A program made the translations under genes and the position numbers. A stretch of DNA of 64,000 bases from Giardia intestinalis (Eukaryota), in assembly GCA_000002435.2 (NCBI GenBank), contig CM018792.1; one strand, 5' to 3'. The notes under the pieces were generated by a model that saw only the letters and a list, made by a program, of their open reading frames with translations, was not told the DNA's origin and searched no databases. Each line of letters opens with the position of its first letter. The stretch's first letter is position 1. This document shows, one piece after another, positions 4,067 to 16,205 of the stretch.

Positions 4067-7000
4067 ATGGCCAGCGCCTTGTCTATTAATGAGCTGTTCA
4101 CCTTGCGTGACGCGCAGGTTCCCGAGGGGTCCTGCTCCCCTGAGCACTTGACTGTGTCGTCGTCTTCTGGGATCTGTGTATGCGTGACCACTGGGGAGGC
4201 AGCAAATTTAACTGTTGTTAACACGGTTAACCCACAGGCCACAAAGACTTTCCCCATTCAAGCACAGCACGCGATCCAGCACAGGAAGAACCCCAACATC
4301 GTGGTCTTGCGCACGCCAGTCCTGCTCCAGACCCTCGATGTTTCCACTATGACCCCTTATGGACGTTTTGACTTTCCGAACCCCATTGGAGTGGACTACT
4401 GGGGCTGGGCCACGGACGAGAAGCTGGCACTCGTCTGCCCCGATGCCGTCTACTTCTGGAATTGCATGACGGGAGAGTTTTCCCCAGGGTTCGCGCGGGA
4501 CGTGAGCTTGACGAGCACCTACAGTAACTCGCGCATCACTGACCTAGCCGTCTCGTCTGACGCAGACTGGGTCGCAATCACTGCGCTGGGCACGGACCAG
4601 GCAAACCACACACAGGGAATGATCCAGCTCTACTGCTTTAGCAGGGCATATACCCGTATGCTTTCAGGGCAGTGCGTGACTTTTGTTGACTGGCAGCTCG
4701 ATGCGACAAGGCCGAAAACCACTCTTCTGGCGTATGCACACAAGCCTACTGGGTCGCAGGAGATCACAATTAACATAATGGAACCTGCACCACAGGTTGG
4801 GGCTGACGGCGCCTCTATCTCTGGCTTCACAACGAAGGCCGTTCAGGCCACCGTGAGCGCCGCGCTTGTAGGCGTGGATCATCCTCTGTTCTTGAGGGGA
4901 AAGGAGAAATACGGTTTTCTTTACATGTTTTCCAAGCAGGGCAACGTTACCTTGGTGGATATCTACAGCGGCCTCTTGATCTATCAGGGCCCCATTTCGG
5001 GGGAGATGGTCTTTGCTATCGGAACGTGTTACGAAGGTGGGACTTTTTCTGATACCCATGACTTTATAGGCATCACCACCGATGGCCGGTGCTATGGGAT
5101 TGGGGTGGATAAGATCAATCTGGTGAACTATGTCATGACTAAGCGTGGCCAGCCGGACGTTGCCTACGCCATCGCCTTGCGCACGGGGATCCGGGGCGCC
5201 GACTCTTTATTCCAACAGAAGCTAGATGGCTATCTTGGTCAGTACCAGTGGAGCGAGGCTGCTGAGCTTGTTAAGATAGCTCCAGCAGGTGTCCTTCGCA
5301 CAAAGGCCACAATAGATCGTTTTCTAGCTGGTGCTGCGTTCACTGCACCAGGCGCACCAACGCCAATCATGATCTATCTTACGCGGATGCTGGAGAACGA
5401 TGGCAAGCTAGCTATTGAAGAGGAGTCGATGGAGTTGGCGAAGTTCCTTGTTCAGACTTCTAATGTGAGTACCATCGAGACGTACATTAAGGAGAAGCGC
5501 TTTTTTGCAACCGAAGGGTTGGGCGACTACTTGGCGTCTGTGGGTCTCGAGCAACCGTCGTTCACCACGTATGCTAACGCTGGGTGCCACGAGAAGGCCA
5601 TTGCCTGGCTCATTGCGCACAACCAATACGCTATCATCCCACAGTATGCACAGAAGTTCCCAGAGTACACGCCAGACTATCCACGTATTATAAGCCAGGC
5701 ACTAAAGCAGGCGGAGCAGAGACCTGATGGCGCATCCACCATAGAGAGCATATACCAGTTTTCGCTTAGCATCACCCAGGCACTTGATGCGACCACAGAC
5801 GGAGATAAGATTCTAGATATTGCAGATTGCTTCGCTGACATAGGGAGGGTGAACGAGGCTACAACAATCCTCCTGGAAGTTTGCAAGCGCTACAACTACT
5901 CCGACGATACCGTTATCTACCAGTCGATGGTTATTGAGCTCAACAGAGGGGTGAACCAGGCAGTCGTGGATGCCATACAGGCTAAGGGCGTGCTTGCAAG
6001 AATTAACCGGGCAGAGATAACTAAACGCAGCGAGGAGAGCGGACTTTATCAGCGGGCGTTTGAATTCTGTGATTCCGACGCAGAATGTCGGCGCATCGCA
6101 TCAACCTATGCTGCAAAGCTAGGGAAGTCAATCTTCTCGTCACCACGGTGGTATGGCGCGTATATCAAACGTGCATCGCGCTTTTCAAATCCAACCGACG
6201 ATGTTATTAAGAGTCTTTTTGCCTTTCAGCAGCAAATGCTTGAAATAACAATAGGCGGGGAGCGCATCTACGCTGACCATGTTGCCATGGGCTTTGCTCT
6301 CTCTCCGATCGTTGTTTCTAACGTCAGTCTGTGTGTTACTGTTGTCAAGGTCTTTGAGAAATATGGAATGGGTAACTCCGAAGCCCTCTACCTTTTCTTG
6401 TCCATGATTGCGCCCACGTGCCTGGATTCGTCCATCCACAACTTCCTTCTCCGCACAATTCTTCAGCTGGATTCAAAGACTCTTGAACTCACACACATAG
6501 TCGCTGAAGATCAGTATCTGGACCCGAATGAGTGCTTCACCATAATGACTACCACGACCCCTGCAAGCCCGGACGCCTTCCTCCAGGCTTTCCTTACTTT
6601 TTGCGAGCGGTTCCATCTCGGCAAGAAACTGGGTTTGTTCCTAACAGACTCCATCACCAACAAGGTTCTAGGGAAAGACACGTTCTTTACACTGAACGCA
6701 GCAACGATTGTAGAGGCGTTCATCGGTGGACATGGAGTTGCGCAGGCGCATGACCTCCTCTTCGGTCTGTTCGAAGGAGGAGTGCTGGCAGTTCCAGAGA
6801 GGCCTGCCCTAGACGCCGTTTTTTCAGCAGACATGCTCAGCAAGCTGATGGAAAAGCCTGCAGTTCAGGCTGGTTGTGATATCAATAAGGTTGTGGATGC
6901 CTGCTTCACAAGCTCTCGAACTCTTAAAGTCGGGCGCTCACTTCTCGAGAAGCGTCTAGCATCCGGGACAACAGACACGTTTGTCCACACTGCGTTTGCG

Positions 7001-9682
7001 AAGCTACACATGGAAGAGCGCAACGGCAATGCTAAGCGCCTCCTCATGGAGGACCCTTACATCGACCACGCGCTCATAGGAACCTTCATTCTGGAGTCTC
7101 CGACACACCGGACCGATGACTTTTTAGTCGATCTTGCAATGACATCGCTGACCATCGGGGCTTTTGGACCAACGACTGCAGGCGCTGATTTTTCTGACCA
7201 CATTATTAACGGAGAATGCGCCAGGATGCTGGTCTTAGTTGCCTACGCAGGGAGTGCTTACAAGGAGCTGGCTGAGAGGCTCCTCTTGCACAAGTGTAGT
7301 GAGCTTTGGCAGCTGGCTCTTGTCGGAGTTATGAACGAGGACCCAGCTTCCGACGTCATCAAAGCAATCACGCAGGGTGGGATGCGTCCGATGAGCATGC
7401 ACAGGGACATGCTCTTGCAGGTCTTGGCGCACAGCCCGCCAATTCCTCTCGACACGCTCAGCGATGCACAAATTTTCGTTCTATCTTCGTCTATTCTTGC
7501 CATTAAGAATGAGAGCGATGCAATTCCAAGATATCTACAGGCGATACTAGAAAAGATCATCACTTCTCCGGGCTCTGTGCACGCAAGCAATCCGGGCATG
7601 CAGAATCTTCTCATCGTTACCGCCCTAAATACAAAGGACTATCCTAAGGTGTCGGCCCTTATTCGCTCTGCAGACATGTGCTATGACCAGGACGTAATTG
7701 CAAAGGCTTGCGTGGAAACGGCAAAGAAGAACGAGTACCCGCCTCTCTACGAGGACGCCTTTGAGGTTTTCCACCGCGCCGGGCGTCCCATTGATGCCAT
7801 TCGAGTACTTTTGGACAACATCTCCATAGACCGTGGGATCACTTACGCTAACTCTGTGGGCCTTCCTGAAGTGTGGTCCTTAGTTGGATCGGCCCAGCTC
7901 GAAAAGGCAAGTGCTTATGCATCCGAGGATAATGGGCGCTTCGCGTTGAAATTTGCTTGTGACGCAATAGCATCGTATTTGACCGGAAGATGGACCGCTG
8001 ACTACCGTAATCTTATAATCACGTCATTCAAGGTTTCAAAGGCGTTTATGCACACGCACTCTGTTGAGGTTCGGAGTGAGCTGGCCGCTTTGCTGGAGTA
8101 TTTAAGGATGGCTCGTGTTGTGGTGGCACAGAAGGGGGAGACGTCTTCCCAAGCAGAGATAGATACCGCAGTCATGTATTGCCTGGCCAGGCTGGATGAC
8201 TATGGTGCCCTCAGCGAGTTTCTGGAGTCAGTCAATCCACGCGATAGTACTGTGATACCGAATCGCGGAGGAATAAAGGAGGTCGGAGAGAAGTGCTTTG
8301 CTGAGGAGCATTACAAGGCTGCAAAGTACTTCTTTGAGTTTGTCGGTGACTGGTCACGACTATCTCTTACGTTGGTCAAGCTTCGCTGCTTGAAAGAGGC
8401 GGTGGAGGCTGCTACACGCGCCGCAGATCCTGAGTGCTGGAAGGCGGTAGCTGCAGAGTGCCTGGAGATCCGCGATTTTGAGCTTGCAAAGTCAGTCTTC
8501 CTCAACCTCGTCCTCGTAGAGTCTGAGCTTCCGTCGATAGTGCAATATTATGAGGAGTATGGTTTTATTGAGGAGCTCCTCGAGGTCCTGGAGGCAGGCG
8601 CCGAACAGCCGCAAGCAGCCACATACACCTCTATGGAGACGAATATATTCACCATCCTGGCAATACTTTACTGTAAGTACATGTGGATTGTTCGCAAGAC
8701 AGACCCCCAGCGTCTACAAACGTATATCAAGACGCACGGAAACAAAATCCATATCCCGACTCTTCTGCACTGGACCCGTGAGACAAGGCTCTGGGGAGAG
8801 TACGCGTATCTGCTGGCAGCGTCCCGTGACTTCGACAAGGCTGTCGTTGAGATGATAGCCCATCCCCCGTCGTCTTTCAATCATGATGTTATGAAGAAGG
8901 TGATAGGACGGGTCTCAAATCCTGAGTTGGTTGCCCAAGTCGTAAGCTTCTATATTGAGTACTCCCCAGAGTATCTCTGCGACTTCTTAAAGGCTTGTCA
9001 GCTCGGGGTTCCAAATGCCGACGGCTCTCCAGGGATCCCTGCTGCCTTGGATCCTATTCGAGTGATTGCTATGGTGAGATCCTACGATTGCGTCCCTATG
9101 ATTAAGTCGTACCTGGAATTGTTTGTAGGTGCGCACAACCAGGAAATTAACGAGACCTTGATAAAGATTTACCTTGAGAGCTATGACGACGAAGGCCTGA
9201 GGAGACTTATTGCCGCAACGACTGCCTATGATGCACACGCACTCTTAGACAATTTGGTATCGGAGGATCAGACAGATGACATGCGGAAGCTTGCGGTAGG
9301 GCTCTATGGACGCCTGAATCGATACGACGAGGGCATCAAATTTGGTCTTCAGAATTGGTTTTATGAGGACGCTGCGGAGTGTGCAGCGGACTCGGGACAG
9401 ATCGAGCACTGCGAGGCATTGCTACGCTTAGTCTGCAGCTCGCAGTTCCCCACGCCGAAGATCAGAAAGGAGGTCTTTGCTGTCATTCTCATTCGCTGCG
9501 GCCACTGCATCAGGCCCGACGTAGTCATGGAGTTGGCCTGGGTCAACAGAATGACAGACTACATGATGCCATACATGATCTCCACGTTGCAACGCTACGG
9601 GTCTGCAGTCCGCACACTTGCGGGGTCGATTGCAGAAGCAAGAGGCATGATTCCGGCGCAGCAAGCACCCCAACAACACTAG
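4067..9682 (+). CDS. CHC: Clathrin heavy chain
   Basis: 1871 aa. N-terminal beta-propeller similarity to clathrin HC: AVYFWNCMTGE vs AVYHWSMEGE; GMIQLYCFSR vs GAMQLYSVDR; FLYMFSKQGNVTLVDIYSGLLIYQGPISGEMVF vs [31 protein letters not shown]. Followed by a long alpha-helical repeat region. ATG at 4067 follows aattaaaataaattaaaaacct. Confidence 0.85.
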   Translation: MASALSINELFTLRDAQVPEGSCSPEHLTVSSSSGICVCVTTGEAANLTVVNTVNPQATKTFPIQAQHAIQHRKNPNIVVLRTPVLLQTLDVSTMTPYGRFDFPNPIGVDYWGWATDEKLALVCPDAVYFWNCMTGEFSPGFARDVSLTSTYSNSRITDLAVSSDADWVAITALGTDQANHTQGMIQLYCFSRAYTRMLSGQCVTFVDWQLDATRPKTTLLAYAHKPTGSQEITINIMEPAPQVGADGASISGFTTKAVQATVSAALVGVDHPLFLRGKEKYGFLYMFSKQGNVTLVDIYSGLLIYQGPISGEMVFAIGTCYEGGTFSDTHDFIGITTDGRCYGIGVDKINLVNYVMTKRGQPDVAYAIALRTGIRGADSLFQQKLDGYLGQYQWSEAAELVKIAPAGVLRTKATIDRFLAGAAFTAPGAPTPIMIYLTRMLENDGKLAIEEESMELAKFLVQTSNVSTIETYIKEKRFFATEGLGDYLASVGLEQPSFTTYANAGCHEKAIAWLIAHNQYAIIPQYAQKFPEYTPDYPRIISQALKQAEQRPDGASTIESIYQFSLSITQALDATTDGDKILDIADCFADIGRVNEATTILLEVCKRYNYSDDTVIYQSMVIELNRGVNQAVVDAIQAKGVLARINRAEITKRSEESGLYQRAFEFCDSDAECRRIASTYAAKLGKSIFSSPRWYGAYIKRASRFSNPTDDVIKSLFAFQQQMLEITIGGERIYADHVAMGFALSPIVVSNVSLCVTVVKVFEKYGMGNSEALYLFLSMIAPTCLDSSIHNFLLRTILQLDSKTLELTHIVAEDQYLDPNECFTIMTTTTPASPDAFLQAFLTFCERFHLGKKLGLFLTDSITNKVLGKDTFFTLNAATIVEAFIGGHGVAQAHDLLFGLFEGGVLAVPERPALDAVFSADMLSKLMEKPAVQAGCDINKVVDACFTSSRTLKVGRSLLEKRLASGTTDTFVHTAFAKLHMEERNGNAKRLLMEDPYIDHALIGTFILESPTHRTDDFLVDLAMTSLTIGAFGPTTAGADFSDHIINGECARMLVLVAYAGSAYKELAERLLLHKCSELWQLALVGVMNEDPASDVIKAITQGGMRPMSMHRDMLLQVLAHSPPIPLDTLSDAQIFVLSSSILAIKNESDAIPRYLQAILEKIITSPGSVHASNPGMQNLLIVTALNTKDYPKVSALIRSADMCYDQDVIAKACVETAKKNEYPPLYEDAFEVFHRAGRPIDAIRVLLDNISIDRGITYANSVGLPEVWSLVGSAQLEKASAYASEDNGRFALKFACDAIASYLTGRWTADYRNLIITSFKVSKAFMHTHSVEVRSELAALLEYLRMARVVVAQKGETSSQAEIDTAVMYCLARLDDYGALSEFLESVNPRDSTVIPNRGGIKEVGEKCFAEEHYKAAKYFFEFVGDWSRLSLTLVKLRCLKEAVEAATRAADPECWKAVAAECLEIRDFELAKSVFLNLVLVESELPSIVQYYEEYGFIEELLEVLEAGAEQPQAATYTSMETNIFTILAILYCKYMWIVRKTDPQRLQTYIKTHGNKIHIPTLLHWTRETRLWGEYAYLLAASRDFDKAVVEMIAHPPSSFNHDVMKKVIGRVSNPELVAQVVSFYIEYSPEYLCDFLKACQLGVPNADGSPGIPAALDPIRVIAMVRSYDCVPMIKSYLELFVGAHNQEINETLIKIYLESYDDEGLRRLIAATTAYDAHALLDNLVSEDQTDDMRKLAVGLYGRLNRYDEGIKFGLQNWFYEDAAECAADSGQIEHCEALLRLVCSSQFPTPKIRKEVFAVILIRCGHCIRPDVVMELAWVNRMTDYMMPYMISTLQRYGSAVRTLAGSIAEARGMIPAQQAPQQH

Positions 9683-9710
9683 GCCCTGTTCTGGATTTCA
9701 GAGCAAACAA

Positions 9711-10172
9711 CTACTCTTGTAAATTTGACGTCTTCGATGCTTTCTCTGTTTCGAGCTTGGATTCTAGTCGCCGGCGAGCCCTCCAAAGAACTTTGCGGCT
9801 GACCGAGCAACGAAGAAGTGTGGAGACTATGCTGTAGTAGTGGGCTAACGGGAGATTAGGGGCCTCCCTAAGAACAGCTGCAGCCACGTTATCCACATGG
9901 GCAAGAAGGGGGAAAGGACTTTCGTCGGTGTGGAGAACATGGTGCAGAGCAGCCTCGTCGGCAATGACTGAGCCGTCTACTCGTATGGAAATTCGTACAG
10001 ATGCGGAGCAGCCTGCAGATTTGCAGATAAGATGAATACGTCGAGCATCTGCTTTTAGGACTCGCCAGCGGGACCCTCTTGTGACGATATGGTCCGAGTA
10101 ATACCTAAGAGCGTCGTCCTTCGAGCAGAAGCGCCTCTGCGAATCAAGCTGCTGAACAACAGCTGCAGACAT
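9711..10172 (-). CDS. Small candidate gene (about 153 aa from the first ATG) with a WRKY/FAR1/GCM1-type zinc-finger-like pattern. Lies in the 505-bp gap between convergent CHC and kinesin genes, in frame with the kinesin and directly downstream of it.
   Basis: ORF 9711..10187 begins with a GTG immediately after the kinesin TAA. First ATG is 15 nt later (MSAAVVQQLDSQRRFCSKDDALRYYSDHIVTRGSRWRVLKADARRIHLICKSAGCSASVRISIRVDGSVIADEAALHHVLH). Pattern: F...A..YY......G..W.V.K......L.C-x4-C-x21-HH-x2-H. Codon usage looks Giardia-like. A 500-bp convergent spacer is atypically long for this genome otherwise. Confidence 0.4.
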   Translation of the reverse strand: MSAAVVQQLDSQRRFCSKDDALRYYSDHIVTRGSRWRVLKADARRIHLICKSAGCSASVRISIRVDGSVIADEAALHHVLHTDESPFPLLAHVDNVAAAVLREAPNLPLAHYYSIVSTLLRCSVSRKVLWRARRRLESKLETEKASKTSNLQE

Positions 10173-10187
10173 GGGAAATTTGTTCAC

Positions 10188-13100
10188 TTAGTGTCCAGTA
10201 TCTGTTTTCGTCTGATCCACGAAAATAAACTTCTTTATAATAAGAACTTGCTCTCCGTTGATCTCCTTGAATCCATCCTCCTTGGTCTGGGTCCTGACGA
10301 TGTTTGTGCTAACAATAGCGACCTTCTTCTTGGACGGATCGGGGAGCGCGCTGTCTTTGATCTCGGGCACAAGGGAGTCGGCATAGGCCGAGGTGTACCC
10401 ATAAAGACTGACCTCTAAGCCGGTCCCACTAGTGCGCAGCCATTCCAAGACATCGTCCTGCTTAAAGTAGCTCGTCTTAAGATCCATGTAAATAGTTGAG
10501 TCGAGCGCAGGGTTTGGCGAGAGGTCTGAACTAGAGGCTGTCTGAAAGGTATAGCCCATGTCCAGTAACCTTCGGCGAAACTCATTTTCTTGATAAACGG
10601 AGAGGCGTTTTCCCTTCGGACGTCCAGCGTCCGGGTTGACAAACCATGGCATATGAATCACAGCGTGAACCTTCTTGCAGCACTGGGTGGGTACATTGTA
10701 CGCCTTCTTGAAGTAAGCAGCAATGGTCGTTACAGGGCTTTCGTTCTGAACCAAATTTGCAACATCACATGCGAGGCACTCGGCTCCGTGGTGTGAATAC
10801 CCCGAGCCCAGAAGTGAGAGCGATACATCAATGCTAGTGGCTGCCTTACCCGAGTAGTCATAAATCGGAACGGAAAAGACATCCGTCTCACACGTCTCGA
10901 GAAGACCCGACAGAGGGATACGCCCAACCCCGATAAGGTGAGTTAGGGTCTGGTTATAGATATCTGCCTCCAGATCGAAAGGAAACTCGTCATCATCCTC
11001 TAGATCCCTGTCTGCACTCTCATGTGCCCTGCGCACAGCCTCTTCCTTACCAAGAGTCATCGCAAGTCCGTACATGCGCCTCATGCCGGAGAGTCGCAGC
11101 CCAAATTTCTCTAGTGCCCAGACCTGTCTGATAAGCTTGCGATCCCTGGTTTTGCTGGGGGCAGCCGTGGCCGTCACCAAAATCTCTACGAGTATACCAC
11201 TCAGATCGTCATCAATCTGATCCGCTCGTAAGTCCTTCGTCATTGGATGATTTTTGGACATATTGCGAATGGTCTGACATCGAGCAGCCTGGCGTAGAGA
11301 CGTCGGACTGATAGATGTACGAGCTTGTGCAGCAAAGCGAATGTCATAACAAAAGTACTCTGCTATGGAATTCGCCTCGCAGATAAATGGATAGAGCTGA
11401 CGCAGCACCTCGTGAACCTTCTTTTCATAGGTGGTCCGCTCATCATCGTTTCCAAAATCTGCATAAAAGCTTTCATTGATGTCTGTCTGCACGTTATCTA
11501 AGCCAGGCGTAATTCCAAATGCATCGTCCATGGTAACGGAAACATTCTCCTTAGACACAGGATCATCTCCTATAGGTCTCTGTGCAGTGTCCTTCCCAGA
11601 GCTCTGATAATACGTGTATTCACGTAGTGCAAGATCATACGTTATCTCTGGCTCTACGTAGTCGTAATCCTGTTCCAGAGACTGTTTGACTGCAGCCGCA
11701 CGTGCAGGAGGATCGTAGTAACGATAGAAGGATGACTGGGCCGCAGACCCGCACTTGATACGGTCGCCGTGACGGAGCTGGTGAGTAGAACCAGCAGCTA
11801 TCTGCCTTCCATTGATGTAGAGAGCCCCTTTCGCGCTGAGGGGCCTTATAGTGGCTTCAGTGACTTTGGGAAAGATAGGATTAGCGGTTGAGTCAACGAC
11901 TTTGCCTGTCAAGGAAATAATAAAGTGCTCACCAAGCACACCGAGTTTGCTGACAAGGGCTATCCTGCACTGGCACTCTGTCGGCCCACTATCATCTGCA
12001 CCAACGACAACAGTAACAGGACGAGCATCTTTAAGATCATTCTCAGAACATAACGTATAAATTAGCTGGCCATTATCAGAAGCATTTGAGCTCAAATTGG
12101 ATATATACGGAGTGGTAATTTCTGACCCAAAAGCTGCCGCGAGGCCCATCTTTTTGAGCTTATCTTGTAGCTCTTGTCTGTTCTGCTCCGCTCTGGCTAG
12201 CTTCTCCTCTAGAGATTGATTCCCTTCCTTAAGAAGTCTGTCATACTCGGCTATCTTTGCTTCTAATTCTAAGCGCTCAGCATCAGACAGGCCTGGTTCT
12301 ACAGCACCTGCGTCCCCGGCGGGGGCGCCCCCGGCGAGGAGGGCCTCGAGCTCCTTGACGCGGTCCTCGAGCTCGCGGATGTACTTCTCCTGGGCAGACT
12401 CGTTCTTCGTGACGGTGTTCTCGATCTGGTGGGCGCGGTCTGCGTAGCGGAGGGTCGAGAGGCTCTCGTCGTAGTTCGTCGACGCAGGCGAGATCGCGGC
12501 GATCATGCACGTCATCGAGTTGCCCCCGAGCGCGGGCTGGAGGAGGTACGTCAGCTGGGAGTCGCGGTACGGGACGTGCTGGGGCTTCCGGCGGCCCTCC
12601 GCGGTCGTGTTGTACGCGAGCGCCTCGATGACGCGCCCGAGGGTCGTCAGGGACTTGTTGATGCTGATGCCCTCCGTCAGGCGGTCGCCCGTCGCGCCCG
12701 TCTTGCCCTGGCGCTCGGACCCCGCGAGGTCGACGAGGCTCACCCGGGCGCGCTTGACGTGGCGCCCGACCTCCTCGCCCGCGTCGTTCCGGAGGACCGC
12801 CGTCTGGACGACCTCGATCGCGAAGACGGAGTGCGAGCGCGAGCTCGTCGCGTTCATGTTCGTCGCCGCGACCGTCCGGTTCCGGTCCCCGAGCTCGATC
12901 AGGCGCTGGATCGCGTCGTAGTCGGCGACCGCGTGGTGGCTGAGGTTCTGGACGAAGACGCCCGCCGCGGGGTCCTGGCGGATCCGGAGCTCCTGGGCGC
13001 CCGCGGCGGGGACGAGGAGGTCCCGGAGCCGCTCGTTGTAGATCTCGAGGAACGAGACGGAGACCTGCGTCTCGGCGGGCGAGGCGGCGGCGCGGCGGAA

Positions 13101-13475
13101 GAGCTCGCGCCCGACCCGCGGGATGATCCCTGCGTCGGCCTCGCTCGCGGGCGCGCCCATCATCGAGTACGACTTCCCGGAGCCCGTCTGGCCGTACGCG
13201 AAGAGCGTGTAGTTGTAGCCCTCGAACGCGTTGTCGAGGACGCTCGGCCCGATGTCTGCGTAGACCGTGTCCTGGGTCGCGCACGGGCGGCTCGCGTCGT
13301 GGGACCAGTACGCGTGGTCGTAGACGAACGCCGCGTCGGGCTTCTTCGCGTCTGCGTCCCGGAGGACGACCTTCCCCCCGCCCGGCATGTCGACGCAGAG
13401 CCGCGCCGCCTCCCTCTTCTCGCGCGCGTTGAACGGCCGGACGCGCACCGCGACCTTGACCCCTGTCACCGGCAT
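10188..13475 (-). CDS. Kinesin-3 family motor protein (N-terminal motor, FHA-like domain, long tail)
   Basis: 1095 aa. P-loop GQTGSGKS, switch I NATSSRSHSVF, switch II LVDLAGSER, neck coiled coil. FHA-like block VVVGADDSGPTECQCRIALVSKLG...HFIISLTGKV...ALYINGRQIAAGSTHQLRHGDRI. ATG at 13475. First 390 or so codons are extremely GC3-rich. Confidence 0.85.
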   Translation of the reverse strand: MPVTGVKVAVRVRPFNAREKREAARLCVDMPGGGKVVLRDADAKKPDAAFVYDHAYWSHDASRPCATQDTVYADIGPSVLDNAFEGYNYTLFAYGQTGSGKSYSMMGAPASEADAGIIPRVGRELFRRAAASPAETQVSVSFLEIYNERLRDLLVPAAGAQELRIRQDPAAGVFVQNLSHHAVADYDAIQRLIELGDRNRTVAATNMNATSSRSHSVFAIEVVQTAVLRNDAGEEVGRHVKRARVSLVDLAGSERQGKTGATGDRLTEGISINKSLTTLGRVIEALAYNTTAEGRRKPQHVPYRDSQLTYLLQPALGGNSMTCMIAAISPASTNYDESLSTLRYADRAHQIENTVTKNESAQEKYIRELEDRVKELEALLAGGAPAGDAGAVEPGLSDAERLELEAKIAEYDRLLKEGNQSLEEKLARAEQNRQELQDKLKKMGLAAAFGSEITTPYISNLSSNASDNGQLIYTLCSENDLKDARPVTVVVGADDSGPTECQCRIALVSKLGVLGEHFIISLTGKVVDSTANPIFPKVTEATIRPLSAKGALYINGRQIAAGSTHQLRHGDRIKCGSAAQSSFYRYYDPPARAAAVKQSLEQDYDYVEPEITYDLALREYTYYQSSGKDTAQRPIGDDPVSKENVSVTMDDAFGITPGLDNVQTDINESFYADFGNDDERTTYEKKVHEVLRQLYPFICEANSIAEYFCYDIRFAAQARTSISPTSLRQAARCQTIRNMSKNHPMTKDLRADQIDDDLSGILVEILVTATAAPSKTRDRKLIRQVWALEKFGLRLSGMRRMYGLAMTLGKEEAVRRAHESADRDLEDDDEFPFDLEADIYNQTLTHLIGVGRIPLSGLLETCETDVFSVPIYDYSGKAATSIDVSLSLLGSGYSHHGAECLACDVANLVQNESPVTTIAAYFKKAYNVPTQCCKKVHAVIHMPWFVNPDAGRPKGKRLSVYQENEFRRRLLDMGYTFQTASSSDLSPNPALDSTIYMDLKTSYFKQDDVLEWLRTSGTGLEVSLYGYTSAYADSLVPEIKDSALPDPSKKKVAIVSTNIVRTQTKEDGFKEINGEQVLIIKKFIFVDQTKTDTGH

Positions 13476-13607
13476 TTCTTTTTTTACTGGTTCTAGTATA
13501 GGATGGTGTATAGGTCATGTAGGGTAGGGTAGGGTAAACACTTACCTCTAGACTACGATGCTCCATACTAGAGAGCTCGGATCCAAAAAATAGAATTCGA
13601 GCTCTTG
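13476..13607. promoter_or_regulatory. Bidirectional intergenic/promoter region between the divergent kinesin-3 and coiled-coil genes. AT-rich stretches abut both ATGs. Contains an imperfect 12-bp inverted repeat and (TAGGG)3.
   Basis: aaaaaaagaaATG on the minus side and ...gaattcgagctcttgATG on the plus side. GAGCTCGGATCC-aaaaaata-GAATTCGAGCTC at about 13573-13604. tctaga at about 13547. tagggtagggtaggg at about 13520-13534. Confidence 0.5.
13520..13534 (+). repeat. Interstitial telomere-like repeat (TAGGG)x3
   Basis: Exact tagggtagggtaggg. TAGGG is the Giardia telomeric unit. Confidence 0.6.
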
Positions 13608-16205
13608 ATGACAAGCGCGCTTCCCCGAACACCAGACCTAGCGTATCTTTCTGCAGATGCTCCCCGATCTGTTGAACGATTTCCAACTACTCAGGAGCCT
13701 CCCGAAAATCAGGCTATGAGGCAGTCGTCCAGTACACTTGTTGGTGGTCTCAATGCCAACGACTCAATGGCACGCAGCTCGACGAACTACATGGGAGAGT
13801 CTCAGCTGAATACTATTGAAAGTCTTCAGATGGAGGCACAGCGAAAGGACAAGCTTCTAGAGAAGCTCAACATACAGCTCAGAGAACGCGAAGAGCAACA
13901 TGACAGAGACATGGAGGCATTATCTGAAATGCAAGAGCTATTGGACAAGAAAGAAGAGCAAATAAGCGAGCTAGCTCTCGCTGTTAGCCAAAGAATGGAG
14001 GTACAGGCAGATAATGCATTGACAGAGAGTCTTACACTTAATGGCTGGGACATGCTTGATACAAATGATGGAGTGAAGGACCCCACCAATCAGGGCACAC
14101 AGAATCTTGGTGATAGCCTGGATCTGACTGTCAGTACTCCGCACTCTGCCCGCTCGGCAGGGCCACTAGAGGCAGACGCATTAAGGCACTCTATACGCAA
14201 ACTTCAGTTTCAGCTTACTCAACGCGATCGTCTGCACCTAGATACTGAGATTTCTAATCAAACTTATCGTGACGAGATCCAGCATTTAAAGGACGAAAAT
14301 TCCCAATATCAAACGCTGATCACCTCACAGGCCGATGAAATACAGATGCTACGCGAACAGCAGATAGGCGAGACAGAAGAACTAGCAGCAATGGAAGAAG
14401 AAATCTCTGTTCTTCGTACCACTCTAGCAGAGAAGCTGCAGCTCATAGAGTCCTTGACCGCTGAGGCGCAAGTTTCTAAGACGCAGCTCCTAGAAATGAA
14501 GGATGCTACGCTTCTCGTTCAGCATTCCGCAGATGTTGCCACAGCAGAAATAGAGACCGCAACAGAAGAAATCACGACCCTCCGCGTGGAGCTAGAGGCT
14601 GAGCGGCAAAAGGTAATTGATTTACAAGCTGCGCTTGACCACGAAAAGTTTGCATCCAAGCAGAAAACGCATGAATACACTGAGGTACTTACCAATCTTT
14701 CCCACTCTCACGGTGTTGTTAACTCTCTGGAAACGCAAATACAAGACATGGAGACACACGCTAGAATAAAGGACGAAGAGATTGAAGCCCTGCAGCTTAA
14801 GTGTAGGTCGCTTCAGCTGGAATTGGACGATACTCGCGCTCAACTAGAGAAGGCCATGAACAACGTAACAACCTTGGTACCAAACCTGTCTCCAGATGAG
14901 CTTGCAACAATATTGTCTGACAACAATAGGATGCTCAATATGCTCACAGACAATGCATCAGAAACAGAGGCATTGCTGGCTGCCAATGAGAAGCTTCAGG
15001 CTTCAAATGGAGAGCTAAAGAAGATGAATGCAGAACTTGTCGCCAGAATGGAGCATCTTTCAATTATGGATTCTGCAGAAACTTCGGAAGCAGCATCGAA
15101 TCAAGCCGCGCTTCTGGACGCAAAAAACAAAATGATCAATAAGTTAGAGGTAGAGCTGGACTCACTACGTCAGAAGTACCACTTGATGGAAAAATCCCTC
15201 AACGAACAGTTAGAGGCCGTCACTGTGGCCAAGGTGACACTGGATGCAGAGAATTCAAGGCTACGCACAGAGCTACAGAGCGTTGAGCCTCAGACCATGA
15301 GTAGTATGAACAGCGCCACAAGCATTAGCATTGCTGGGGGCCACTCCCCAGGCCGTGCTGGTAGCATATCATCACAGGTTATGGGATTGAACTCAGATAT
15401 TACACGCCTGCAAAATGAACTACGCCGCAAGGATGCTGAGATGGACAATATGAGTACGCAAATAGCAACCATCATGGAGGAAATACTATCGGTCCGCCAG
15501 GCCAACATGTCTCTGGAACAGGACGTGCAAGCCTTATCGCAAGAAGCTGAGTATCACAAAGGTCAGGCGTCCATGTTAGAGAAGACGCTTGCTCAGACAC
15601 GCGAGGAGCTCCGCATAACCTTGGACAAGACTCGCGTGGGAGAACTCATTGAGGCACTGAATGGGAAGACAGCAGAAGTCACTAAATTGATTCGCGTAAT
15701 CGAAGAAAAGAACTCGCAGATAAAGGACATGCAAATAGAGCTTGATGGAAGGGTACTAAGTGGTACGACCGGTAAGGTTATGCAGGCAACAATCAAGAAC
15801 CTTGAAGAAGAAATTCTGCGCCTCAACCAAGAATTGGAGCTTGTTGTTATCTCCAATGAAAGCCTGGAAAGCCGTCTACATAGCATGGGTGGGAGTATTG
15901 GACAGCCCCAGCCTCAGACACTGGCGGCCAAGATGCCTGTCAATTCAACTACAAATTTCCATGAGCGTGAAGACCATCTAGGCAGCGATGCATCCTCCGT
16001 CTCAGCAACCATAAGGATGCGTCAGCTCTCTGAAGAGGTGTTATCTCTCAAGGACACCATCGCTAATCTCACAACCACGCTGAAGCAGAAGGATGCACGC
16101 CTAGAAGAGGTATCGTCCGAGCTTTCAGTCAAGTATGTGGAGCTAGATAACATGAGGGGGCTTATTAAAAAGAAGAACGAACAACTTATGCAGCTGATGA
16201 AGTAA
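13608..16205 (+). CDS. Large coiled-coil protein (about 865 aa)
   Basis: ORF track starts at a TTG (13605). First ATG is at 13608. Heptad-rich, E/K/L/Q-rich throughout. No globular domain recognised. Confidence 0.6.
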   Translation: MTSALPRTPDLAYLSADAPRSVERFPTTQEPPENQAMRQSSSTLVGGLNANDSMARSSTNYMGESQLNTIESLQMEAQRKDKLLEKLNIQLREREEQHDRDMEALSEMQELLDKKEEQISELALAVSQRMEVQADNALTESLTLNGWDMLDTNDGVKDPTNQGTQNLGDSLDLTVSTPHSARSAGPLEADALRHSIRKLQFQLTQRDRLHLDTEISNQTYRDEIQHLKDENSQYQTLITSQADEIQMLREQQIGETEELAAMEEEISVLRTTLAEKLQLIESLTAEAQVSKTQLLEMKDATLLVQHSADVATAEIETATEEITTLRVELEAERQKVIDLQAALDHEKFASKQKTHEYTEVLTNLSHSHGVVNSLETQIQDMETHARIKDEEIEALQLKCRSLQLELDDTRAQLEKAMNNVTTLVPNLSPDELATILSDNNRMLNMLTDNASETEALLAANEKLQASNGELKKMNAELVARMEHLSIMDSAETSEAASNQAALLDAKNKMINKLEVELDSLRQKYHLMEKSLNEQLEAVTVAKVTLDAENSRLRTELQSVEPQTMSSMNSATSISIAGGHSPGRAGSISSQVMGLNSDITRLQNELRRKDAEMDNMSTQIATIMEEILSVRQANMSLEQDVQALSQEAEYHKGQASMLEKTLAQTREELRITLDKTRVGELIEALNGKTAEVTKLIRVIEEKNSQIKDMQIELDGRVLSGTTGKVMQATIKNLEEEILRLNQELELVVISNESLESRLHSMGGSIGQPQPQTLAAKMPVNSTTNFHEREDHLGSDASSVSATIRMRQLSEEVLSLKDTIANLTTTLKQKDARLEEVSSELSVKYVELDNMRGLIKKKNEQLMQLMK

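Follow-up and report, generated by a model that had tools for sequence, protein, structure and literature searches.

A small conserved gene between the kinesin-3 and clathrin heavy chain genes of Giardia duodenalis encodes a candidate zinc-binding protein, probably of the WRKY-GCM1 superfamily

Here we analyse a stretch of 64,000 nucleotides from contig CM018792.1 of Giardia intestinalis (assembly GCA_000002435.2), called the window in what follows, and within it a small open reading frame (ORF) that lies between the gene of a kinesin-3 and the convergent gene of clathrin heavy chain. This ORF is a real, independent protein-coding gene under purifying selection. The N-terminal domain of its product probably belongs to the WRKY-GCM1 superfamily, where the DNA-binding domains of MuDR transposases would be its nearest relatives. 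On balance we favour the reading that the gene encodes a zinc-binding, stand-alone, sequence-specific DNA-binding regulator, which would descend from such a transposase domain. What is new is the proposed assignment of a divergent member to this superfamily; the gene itself was already annotated, as hypothetical.

Results

Gene identity and locus

The arrangement had been described correctly in an earlier, sequence-only reading of this DNA. According to the ORF list and its translation, the kinesin ORF (10188-13475, minus strand) terminates ...DTGH-TAA, with its stop at 10190-10188. In the kinesin frame, a 158-codon ORF begins with the GTG at 10187, directly after this stop, and closes with TAG at 9713-9711; its first ATG (10172-10170), 15 nt past the kinesin TAA, yields a product of 153 residues. 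The ORF occupies the 505-bp gap between the kinesin-3 and clathrin heavy chain genes (9683-10187), and 28 nt separate its stop from the end of the convergent clathrin heavy chain ORF (4067-9682, plus strand). The same reading had called the ORF unannotated-looking, which is wrong: the protein is identical to GL50803_28856 (also GL50803_0028856; XP_001709750.1, KAE8303820.1, UniProt A8B516), a 'hypothetical protein' of G. duodenalis WB, and the window thus represents assemblage A of G. duodenalis. On the basis of the ORF list, the translation and this exact match, the coding sequence spans 9711-10172 on the minus strand (153 codons and the TAG).

Annotated orthologues are DHA2_151991 in assemblage A2, GLP15_3273 in assemblage E (88% identity), and GL50581_584 and QR46_0545 in assemblage B (72% identity). 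Two more lineages, with about 70% identity, are found in assemblies of the runs ERR3333378, ERR3333382 and ERR3333383. No member of the family carries a Pfam domain record.

Predicted architecture and candidate zinc site

The small protein is basic, with an isoelectric point of 9.7 overall, 9.35 for its N-terminal part and 10.0 for its C-terminal part. Its structure was predicted with AlphaFold from an alignment of seven orthologous sequences, with a mean predicted local distance difference test score (pLDDT) of 69. The prediction comprises a helix at residues 18-28 (KDDALRYYSDH), strands at 36-41, 45-52, 55-63 and 69-78, and three further helices at 87-103, 109-120 and 126-151. Two domains are delineated in this way: an N-terminal one (residues ~15-81; 9930-10130, minus strand), proposed to be a zinc finger of the MuDR type of WRKY-GCM1 domains, and a C-terminal one (residues ~87-151; 9720-9914, minus strand), predicted to be a three-helix bundle whose third helix (126-151) is basic (RKVLWRARRRLESK). 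Modelled in isolation, the N-terminal domain has the same predicted fold, with a pLDDT of 77.

The four strands are predicted to form a four-stranded antiparallel sheet (pLDDT 69-77), which is the core of the WRKY-GCM1 fold. The helix predicted at 18-28 precedes strand 1, a trait of the MULE families: a helix ahead of strand 1 unites two MULE-transposase-associated families (Babu et al. 2006, PMC1702500). In WRKY-GCM1 domains the zinc site is made up of two Cys at the turn from strand 2 to strand 3 and of two His or Cys at the end of strand 4 (PMC1702500). The small protein contains RFCSKDDALRYYSDHIVTRGSRWRVLKADARRIHLIC-KSAG-C-x21-HH-VL-H, which corresponds to C50-x4-C55-x21-H77-H78-x2-H81, and the pattern reported by the sequence-only reading (RFCSKDDALRYYSDHIVTRGSRWRVLKADARRIHLIC-x4-C-x21-HH-x2-H) is present as written. 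In the predicted model C50 closes strand 2 and C55 opens strand 3, with the hairpin between them, and H77, H78 and H81 stand at the end of strand 4 or just after it. The codons of these candidate zinc ligands are, on the minus strand, 10025-10023 (C50), 10010-10008 (C55), 9944-9939 (H77 and H78) and 9932-9930 (H81). C50, C55, H78 and H81 are invariant across the lineages, and H77 is replaced by Cys in one of them.

This last replacement occurs in the ERR3333382 lineage (locus L001, 2217-2672), which reads AALCHASH; one metal-binding residue is exchanged for another, a change for which two base substitutions are needed. Further invariant His and Cys residues are H28, H47, H92, H111 and C122, for which a single WRKY-type zinc site does not account. 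Given these extra residues, a second metal site in the small protein is possible.

Family assignment of the N-terminal domain

The sequence-only reading had matched the protein to the WRKY-GCM1/FAR1 zinc fingers. What stands of this claim is a weak, specific match to the MuDR branch of the superfamily; the part that named FAR1, WRKY, FLYWCH and GCM found no match. In Pfam, PF03108 (DBD_Tnp_Mut, the MuDR transposase DNA-binding domain) was matched by five of the seven orthologues, at E-values of 0.04-0.18 and 12-14 bits, with residues 26-62 of the protein on positions 23-59 of the 67 in the profile. It was the only WRKY-GCM1-related family to turn up among 24,736, and neither the small protein nor its orthologues matched PF03106 (classical WRKY), PF03101 (FAR1), GCM or FLYWCH. 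A weak match of two members to CheC (PF04509; E 0.12, a 25-residue stretch) was judged spurious.

The N-terminal domain alignment was then compared with MuDR domains by hhalign. The reference set comprised seven PF03108 proteins, fetched with a MUSTANG-like bait that had been checked in Pfam (PF03108, 82 bits) and served no other purpose. The resulting alignment is gapless over 48 columns (P 6.5e-4). It pairs F-x-S and the helix with F-P-D and the helix, RV-x-KAD-x-RR with RIVKSDRSR, and both cysteines with both, the C-x4-C found in all lineages falling on the C-x4-C of real MuDR domains. With a trimmed alignment the score is 25.6 (P 2e-4), a value reached by none of 600 shuffles (10.3 +/- 2.1 when the template columns were shuffled, 10.7 +/- 2.4 for the query, maximum 20.0). 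A Pfam-checked FAR1-domain bait from FHY3 scored 21.8, which 1 of 60 shuffles reached, and a bait from the C-terminal domain of WRKY4 scored 15.0, reached by 3 of 60.

Structure searches were non-discriminating, with generic alpha+beta matches ranked above Aft2. Aft2 was the sole member of the superfamily in both searches, and chains of classical WRKY and GCM proteins were absent from their top lists. A profile search of the PDB sequences returned only a spurious coiled-coil match (E 1.3).

Membership in the other families of the superfamily was considered and rejected. For classical WRKY, strand 1 reads GSRWRVLKAD and holds no WRKYGQK-type motif. For FAR1 and the insert-containing family, the Cys spacer has four residues and strand 4 (GSVIADEAALHH) is without Trp. 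For GCM and FLYWCH, strand 2 runs to strand 3 via C-x4-C with no zinc-ribbon insert, and there is no F-L-Y-W-C-H signature. Nor does the Cys/His spacing fit fingers of the BED or THAP type, in our judgement.

The MuDR type, which is the 'HxC family' of Babu et al. with its short spacer, thus appears as the closest branch, rather than FAR1, classical WRKY, FLYWCH or GCM. The features shared with it (PF03108; PMC1702500) are the helix N-terminal to the sheet, the F-x-S/helix followed by strand 1 and then by K-x-D-x-x-R, the short C-x4-C on the strand 2/3 hairpin, and the ~22-23 residues from there to the C-terminal ligands. The differences are as clear. The Giardia ligands are HH-x2-H (HHVLH; H77, H78, H81), or CH-x2-H (CHASH) in one lineage, with no Cys where MuDR has H-x-C, and the conserved Trp after the second Cys is missing (GCSAS, against GCPWR in MuDR). 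The 153 residues hold no transposase catalytic domain and no SWIM finger, the domain being followed by the three-helix bundle instead, and the gene is single-copy and syntenic, not dispersed. Scores, finally, stay below the Pfam threshold. We consider it likely that the N-terminal domain lies in the WRKY-GCM1 superfamily, nearest to its MuDR branch, and we do not file it in any one Pfam family.

Several observations weigh against this assignment and against the role built on it. Searched with the 153-residue product itself, as the sequence-only reading had proposed, Pfam gave no match at E-values up to 10, and the P15 orthologue gave none either; PF03108 came up in the orthologues only below its threshold, with a best score of 13.9 bits against a cut-off of 25, and no Pfam model was reached at its curated threshold. 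The five PF03108 matches come from orthologues and so are not independent, the MuDR reference alignment is shallow (seven close MUSTANG-like sequences), and the hhalign probability to MuDR is 28-47%. The predicted His region has a pLDDT below 50 in the isolated-domain model, and the C-terminal ligands, HHxxH, are neither HxC nor HxH. When 1.84 billion representative proteins were searched with a profile, neither a true relative beyond G. duodenalis nor a paralogue came up. The RNA-seq data used below, moreover, are of unestablished strand-specificity, and the convergent clathrin 3' end overlaps the small gene.

The alternative that survives best, although we hold it to be unlikely, is that the gene is real and independent and its likeness to MuDR and WRKY-GCM1 domains coincidental. 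It would then be a lineage-specific orphan whose Cys and His residues may bind metal to a different end, e.g. protein-protein or RNA binding, possibly tied to the flanking trafficking genes, or may bind no metal at all. The family matches below curated thresholds, the generic alpha+beta matches above Aft2, the want of homologues outside G. duodenalis and the HHxxH ending all fit such an orphan, as do the invariant H28, H47, H92, H111 and C122, which the WRKY-GCM1 model does not explain. The conserved linkage to the kinesin-3 and clathrin heavy chain genes also fits it, but in a eukaryote that lacks operons adjacency says nothing about a common function. Coincidence would have to account for a weak Pfam match that fell, out of 24,736 families, in the superfamily predicted beforehand from the pattern, for a gapless hhalign alignment with both cysteines aligned that scores above all 600 shuffles, and for a predicted topology that is the fold's own (a helix and four strands, Cys on the strand 2/3 hairpin, His after strand 4).

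Conservation and coding status

The small ORF is intact, with 151-153 codons, in five G. duodenalis lineages, and in all five it is flanked by kinesin-3, which shares its strand, and by the convergent gene of clathrin heavy chain. Its stop is 12 nt from the clathrin stop in three other lineages, against 28 nt here. Pairwise Nei-Gojobori estimates between lineages gave ratios of non-synonymous to synonymous divergence (dN/dS) of 0.12-0.19 for the small ORF (dS 0.4-1.7, with synonymous sites near saturation), 0.03-0.07 for the kinesin tail (dS from ~0.6 to saturation) and 0.02-0.04 for clathrin heavy chain (dS ~0.6-2.9), so that the small ORF evolves faster than both its neighbours. Substitutions in it fall mainly on third codon positions, and the Cys and His residues, H77 apart, are invariant. 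Since the protein is conserved while synonymous sites are near saturation, the small ORF is translated and under purifying selection. The proposal of the sequence-only reading, which had been made to depend on conservation in related genomes, comes out well on this count, with an intact, syntenic ORF and an invariant C50-x4-C55, H78 and H81 in five lineages.

Searches for relatives further afield were negative. Three non-Giardia matches in the search of 1.84 billion proteins were tandem-repeat proteins (DUF6197 repeats, an adhesin-like repeat) whose scores were summed over 7-9 repeats, and were rejected as false positives. A metagenome scan with the family alignment gave no confirmed relative. 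Aimed at the Giardia muris locus, a search with the C-terminus of clathrin heavy chain gave a single match, which was not from Giardia. As far as these searches see, the small gene is restricted to G. duodenalis.

The longest invariant run in the 956-column alignment of the locus across five lineages (window, L001, L002, L004 and L007) is a 14-nt block at 9715-9728, which reads TCTTGTAAATTTGA on the clathrin-sense (plus) strand. It is antisense to the S-N-L-Q-E/D codons with which the small gene closes, and synonymous sites on either side of it are saturated. The block holds TGTAAA at 9718-9723; the distance from the clathrin stop to this hexamer is 36 nt here, and 20 nt in three other lineages. 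This TGTAAA is probably the poly(A) signal of the clathrin heavy chain gene, placed antisense within the last codons of the small gene. No canonical AGURAA signal occurs within 200 nt downstream of the small gene (9500-9713 on the minus strand of the window) or of the clathrin gene in any lineage. As the two stops are only 12-28 nt apart, the mRNA of the small gene must either extend, in antisense, into clathrin coding sequence or rely on another signal.

In many assemblage B isolates the tail of the small protein (orthologous to window 9711-9745) is frameshifted and shortened, giving 143 residues that end ...ESQLERGRA* instead of ...ERGEGLTTSNLQE* and lack SNLQE. Both predicted domains are kept intact in this variant. 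The last ten or so residues of the small protein, and the SNLQE peptide itself, are therefore dispensable.

That the ORF is untranslated, its conservation being due to overlapping non-coding elements at the 3' ends of the two flanking genes, we regard as very improbable. The strongest nucleotide conservation in the ORF does lie in the 14-nt block that probably serves the clathrin 3' end, no peptide evidence for the small protein was found, and no canonical AGURAA follows the gene within 200 nt. Flanking 3' ends could account for the two edges only, however, and not for 460 nt; they would explain neither 151-153 codons kept open in five lineages despite near-saturated synonymous sites, at a dN/dS of 0.12-0.19, nor the bias of substitutions to third positions and the invariant Cys and His residues. 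A scan of Rfam gave no match.

Expression

The gene is listed as GL50803_28856 at CH991779:504387-504849 in the RNA-seq data of Einarsson et al. 2016 (PMC4807828, Table S1). Its expression, in fragments per kilobase per million (FPKM), starts at 46.4 in trophozoites, reaches 126.0 at 90 min of encystation, is back at 41.1 by 7 h and 34.6 by 22 h, and drops to 4.7 in cysts, i.e. a 2.7-fold rise at 90 min followed by near silence in cysts. The upstream kinesin gene, GL50803_112846, stands at 28.1, 56.9, 54.1, 48.2 and 11.2 FPKM at the same stages (PMC4807828, Table S1). The ratio of small gene to kinesin thus runs 1.65, 2.2, 0.76, 0.72 and 0.42 over the time course, values to be read with the reservations on strand-specificity and on the overlapping clathrin 3' end given above. 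Such a falling ratio is not expected of a shared transcript. The check by RNA-seq that the sequence-only reading had proposed, a separate transcript as opposed to the kinesin's, thus turns out in its favour: the small ORF is covered by reads, with a profile unlike that of kinesin.

Table S1 of Einarsson et al. is the only place, in the literature and supplements looked at, where GL50803_28856 appears. The identifier was found in no main text, nor in the parts considered of the supplements to a long-read poly(A) study, a localisation atlas, a structure-based annotation and a 2021 encystation map.

Relation to the kinesin-3 gene

The sequence-only reading had offered two possibilities. The first, a small gene in its own right that encodes a DNA-binding protein and may be a domesticated piece of a transposase, is supported by conservation, synteny, the gene's own RNA-seq profile and the MuDR-like matches. 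The second saw in the ORF a C-terminal tail of kinesin-3, either translated when the stop codon is read through or cut off by a recent nonsense or sequencing change; as a conserved feature, this is refuted by the following comparison.

In all five lineages kinesin terminates at one and the same ...TGH* position; its stop is therefore old, and neither a recent nonsense change nor a sequencing error. Between this stop and the ATG of the small gene lies a short spacer, GTGAACAAATTTCCC in the window (10173-10187, minus strand), of which the core GTGAAYAARTT is common to all lineages. The assemblage A spacer has 15 nt, is in the kinesin frame and is free of stops. In assemblage E, and in the lineage of ERR3333383 and ERR3333378 (loci L002 and L003), it has 16 nt and is out of the kinesin frame, as is the 22-nt spacer of the ERR3333382 lineage (locus L001); that of assemblage B has 18 nt, in the kinesin frame but holding a TAG. 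An in-frame and stop-free spacer is thus found in assemblage A alone among the five lineages. The frame difference between assemblages A and E comes down to a 1-nt length change in a T run (AAATTTCCC against AAATTTTCCC; window 10173-10187 against L004 2408-2423). Because assemblage A is in frame through this difference, prokaryote-style gene callers start at the GTG by the kinesin stop, which gives the 158-residue versions in public databases.

The AGTGAAC that the sequence-only reading had pointed out at the kinesin stop (TAAGTGAAC) is indeed present and overlaps it. The stop codon (TAA, 10190-10188) and the hexamer AGTGAA (10188-10183) together span 10183-10190 on the minus strand. The last A of the stop and the following GTGAA give AGUGAA in every lineage, although the stop itself alternates between TAA and TGA, and the hexamer is the sole AGTRAA on its strand between 9300 and 10300. 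It corresponds to the Giardia poly(A) signal AGURAA, which at times overlaps stop codons (Bilodeau et al. 2022, PMC9014877); for kinesin it is kept in all five lineages. Cleavage in Giardia falls most frequently 13-15 nt from the signal, and less than 20 nt from it in more than 90% of genes (PMC9014877). With the signal placed on its stop, the kinesin mRNA is accordingly expected to end close to the ATG of the small gene. Giardia 5' untranslated regions measure 1-14 nt, and its ribosomes initiate without scanning (PMC3610916), so that the small gene would need a transcription start of its own within the spacer. The 15-22 nt of the spacer would then serve two ends, as the zone where the kinesin mRNA is cleaved and as the A/T-rich region where the small gene starts.

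An extension of kinesin-3 by read-through or by a recent split is in line with the in-frame, stop-free 15-nt spacer of assemblage A and with the GTG starts beside the stop, but it is practically negligible as an explanation, since a downstream ORF kept in frame, stop-free and on the same mRNA across relatives is not what the lineages display, with spacers of 15, 16, 16, 22 and 18 nt, three of them out of frame and the 18-nt one holding TAG, a stop that never moves, a conserved poly(A) hexamer over it, a conserved ATG and N-terminus that start right after the spacer, and a small gene/kinesin expression ratio that shifts fourfold across stages.

Over the last 50 codons of kinesin-3 (10191-10340), 34% (15/44) of the codons for the same amino acid are fully identical in the five lineages, compared with 18% over the last 699 codons, and an invariant run of 12 nt, GGAGATCAACGG, is found at 10266-10255. 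From this raised codon identity, promoter elements of the small gene may lie inside the last codons of kinesin-3.

Neighbouring genes

The upstream kinesin-3 gene (GL50803_112846, minus strand as the small gene) encodes 1095 residues; its identity rests on the translation and on Pfam Kinesin matches at orthologous loci, its name and coordinates on Table S1 of PMC4807828. The convergent clathrin heavy chain gene encodes 1871 residues and was identified from the ORF list and from Pfam Clathrin and Clathrin_H_link matches at orthologous loci. Several long ORFs of 109-467 residues that share DNA with the real genes, in a different frame or on the opposite strand (9379-9837, plus; 10089-10418, plus; 12283-13686, minus; 12429-13496, plus), are probably by-products of composition.

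Discussion

The account that we favour, with some reserve, combines these results as follows. Transcription of the small gene would begin within the 15-22 nt spacer, at a start of its own and under promoter elements inside the last codons of kinesin, and the kinesin mRNA would be cleaved at about the small gene's ATG. In the protein, a first module (residues ~15-81) would bind one zinc ion via C50, C55, H78 and H81, and would put strand 1 (S-R-W-R-V-x-K) into the major groove of DNA, as do the WRKYGQK strand of WRKY domains and the Aft2 domain. A second module (residues ~87-151), the predicted three-helix bundle with its basic last helix, may add DNA contacts, nuclear targeting or dimerisation. 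As there is no transposase catalytic domain, the protein is taken as a stand-alone DNA-binding regulator of transposase descent, which would be active in trophozoites and in early encystation.

Such a history has precedents. Aft1, Aft2 and Rcs1 of yeast and Rbf1 of Candida are transcription factors derived from the DNA-binding domains of MULE transposases (PMC1702500; structure of Aft2 with DNA, 4LMG). Like the protein proposed here, they consist of a stand-alone WRKY-GCM1 domain without transposase and act as DNA-binding regulators. Aft-type domains differ in that they are of the insert-containing family, where a long spacer separates the two Cys, and have no detectable sequence similarity to the Giardia protein.

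Giardia also has a WRKY factor, which plays a role at the genes of cyst-wall proteins. That factor is a member of the WRKY family (PMC1702500). The small protein resembles classical WRKY domains in its C-x4-C-x22/23-H spacing and its predicted four-stranded sheet, and hhalign lays the R-W-R of its strand 1 over the RWRK of WRKYGQK; it departs from them in having SRWRVLK instead of WRKYGQK, a helix at the N-terminus, and HxxH instead of HxH. With FAR1/FHY3 (PF03101) it shares the helix motif F-x-S-x-(D/E)-(D/E)-A-x-x-(F/Y)-Y, which the sequence-only reading had picked out, and a local stretch of similarity in the region of the second Cys and strands 3-4 (CKSAGCSASVRISIRVDGS against CAKTDCKASMHVKRRPDGK), whereas the long insert between the ligand Cys, the conserved Trp of strand 4 and the HNH ending of that family are all missing.

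We know of no DNA transposons of the Mutator type in Giardia. The fullest version of our account, in which GL50803_28856 is an exapted Mutator-type domain that regulates early encystation from within a three-gene arrangement with shared signals, is a speculative one, and we think it improbable as a whole. Were it true, the poly(A) signal and cleavage zone of kinesin would double as the start region of the small gene, the clathrin poly(A) signal would lie antisense in its last five codons, and the three transcripts would be coupled physically and perhaps in their regulation. Close packing of genes, with signals that overlap, is the norm in Giardia, and that part of the arrangement is ordinary.

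For the biology of the parasite, the interest of the gene lies in the fact that very few sequence-specific transcription factors are known in Giardia. About 40% of its proteome is unannotated (PMC13322205), and the early regulators of Giardia differentiation are described as totally unknown in one paper (PMC9295799). The small gene offers a testable DNA-binding assignment for a conserved hypothetical protein and, since its mRNA has risen 2.7-fold 90 min into encystation, a concrete candidate for an early regulator of differentiation. In the main text of Babu et al. 2006 (PMC1702500) diplomonads are given only classical WRKY proteins; if the assignment proposed here is true, the transposase-derived branch of the WRKY-GCM1 superfamily would be extended to them.

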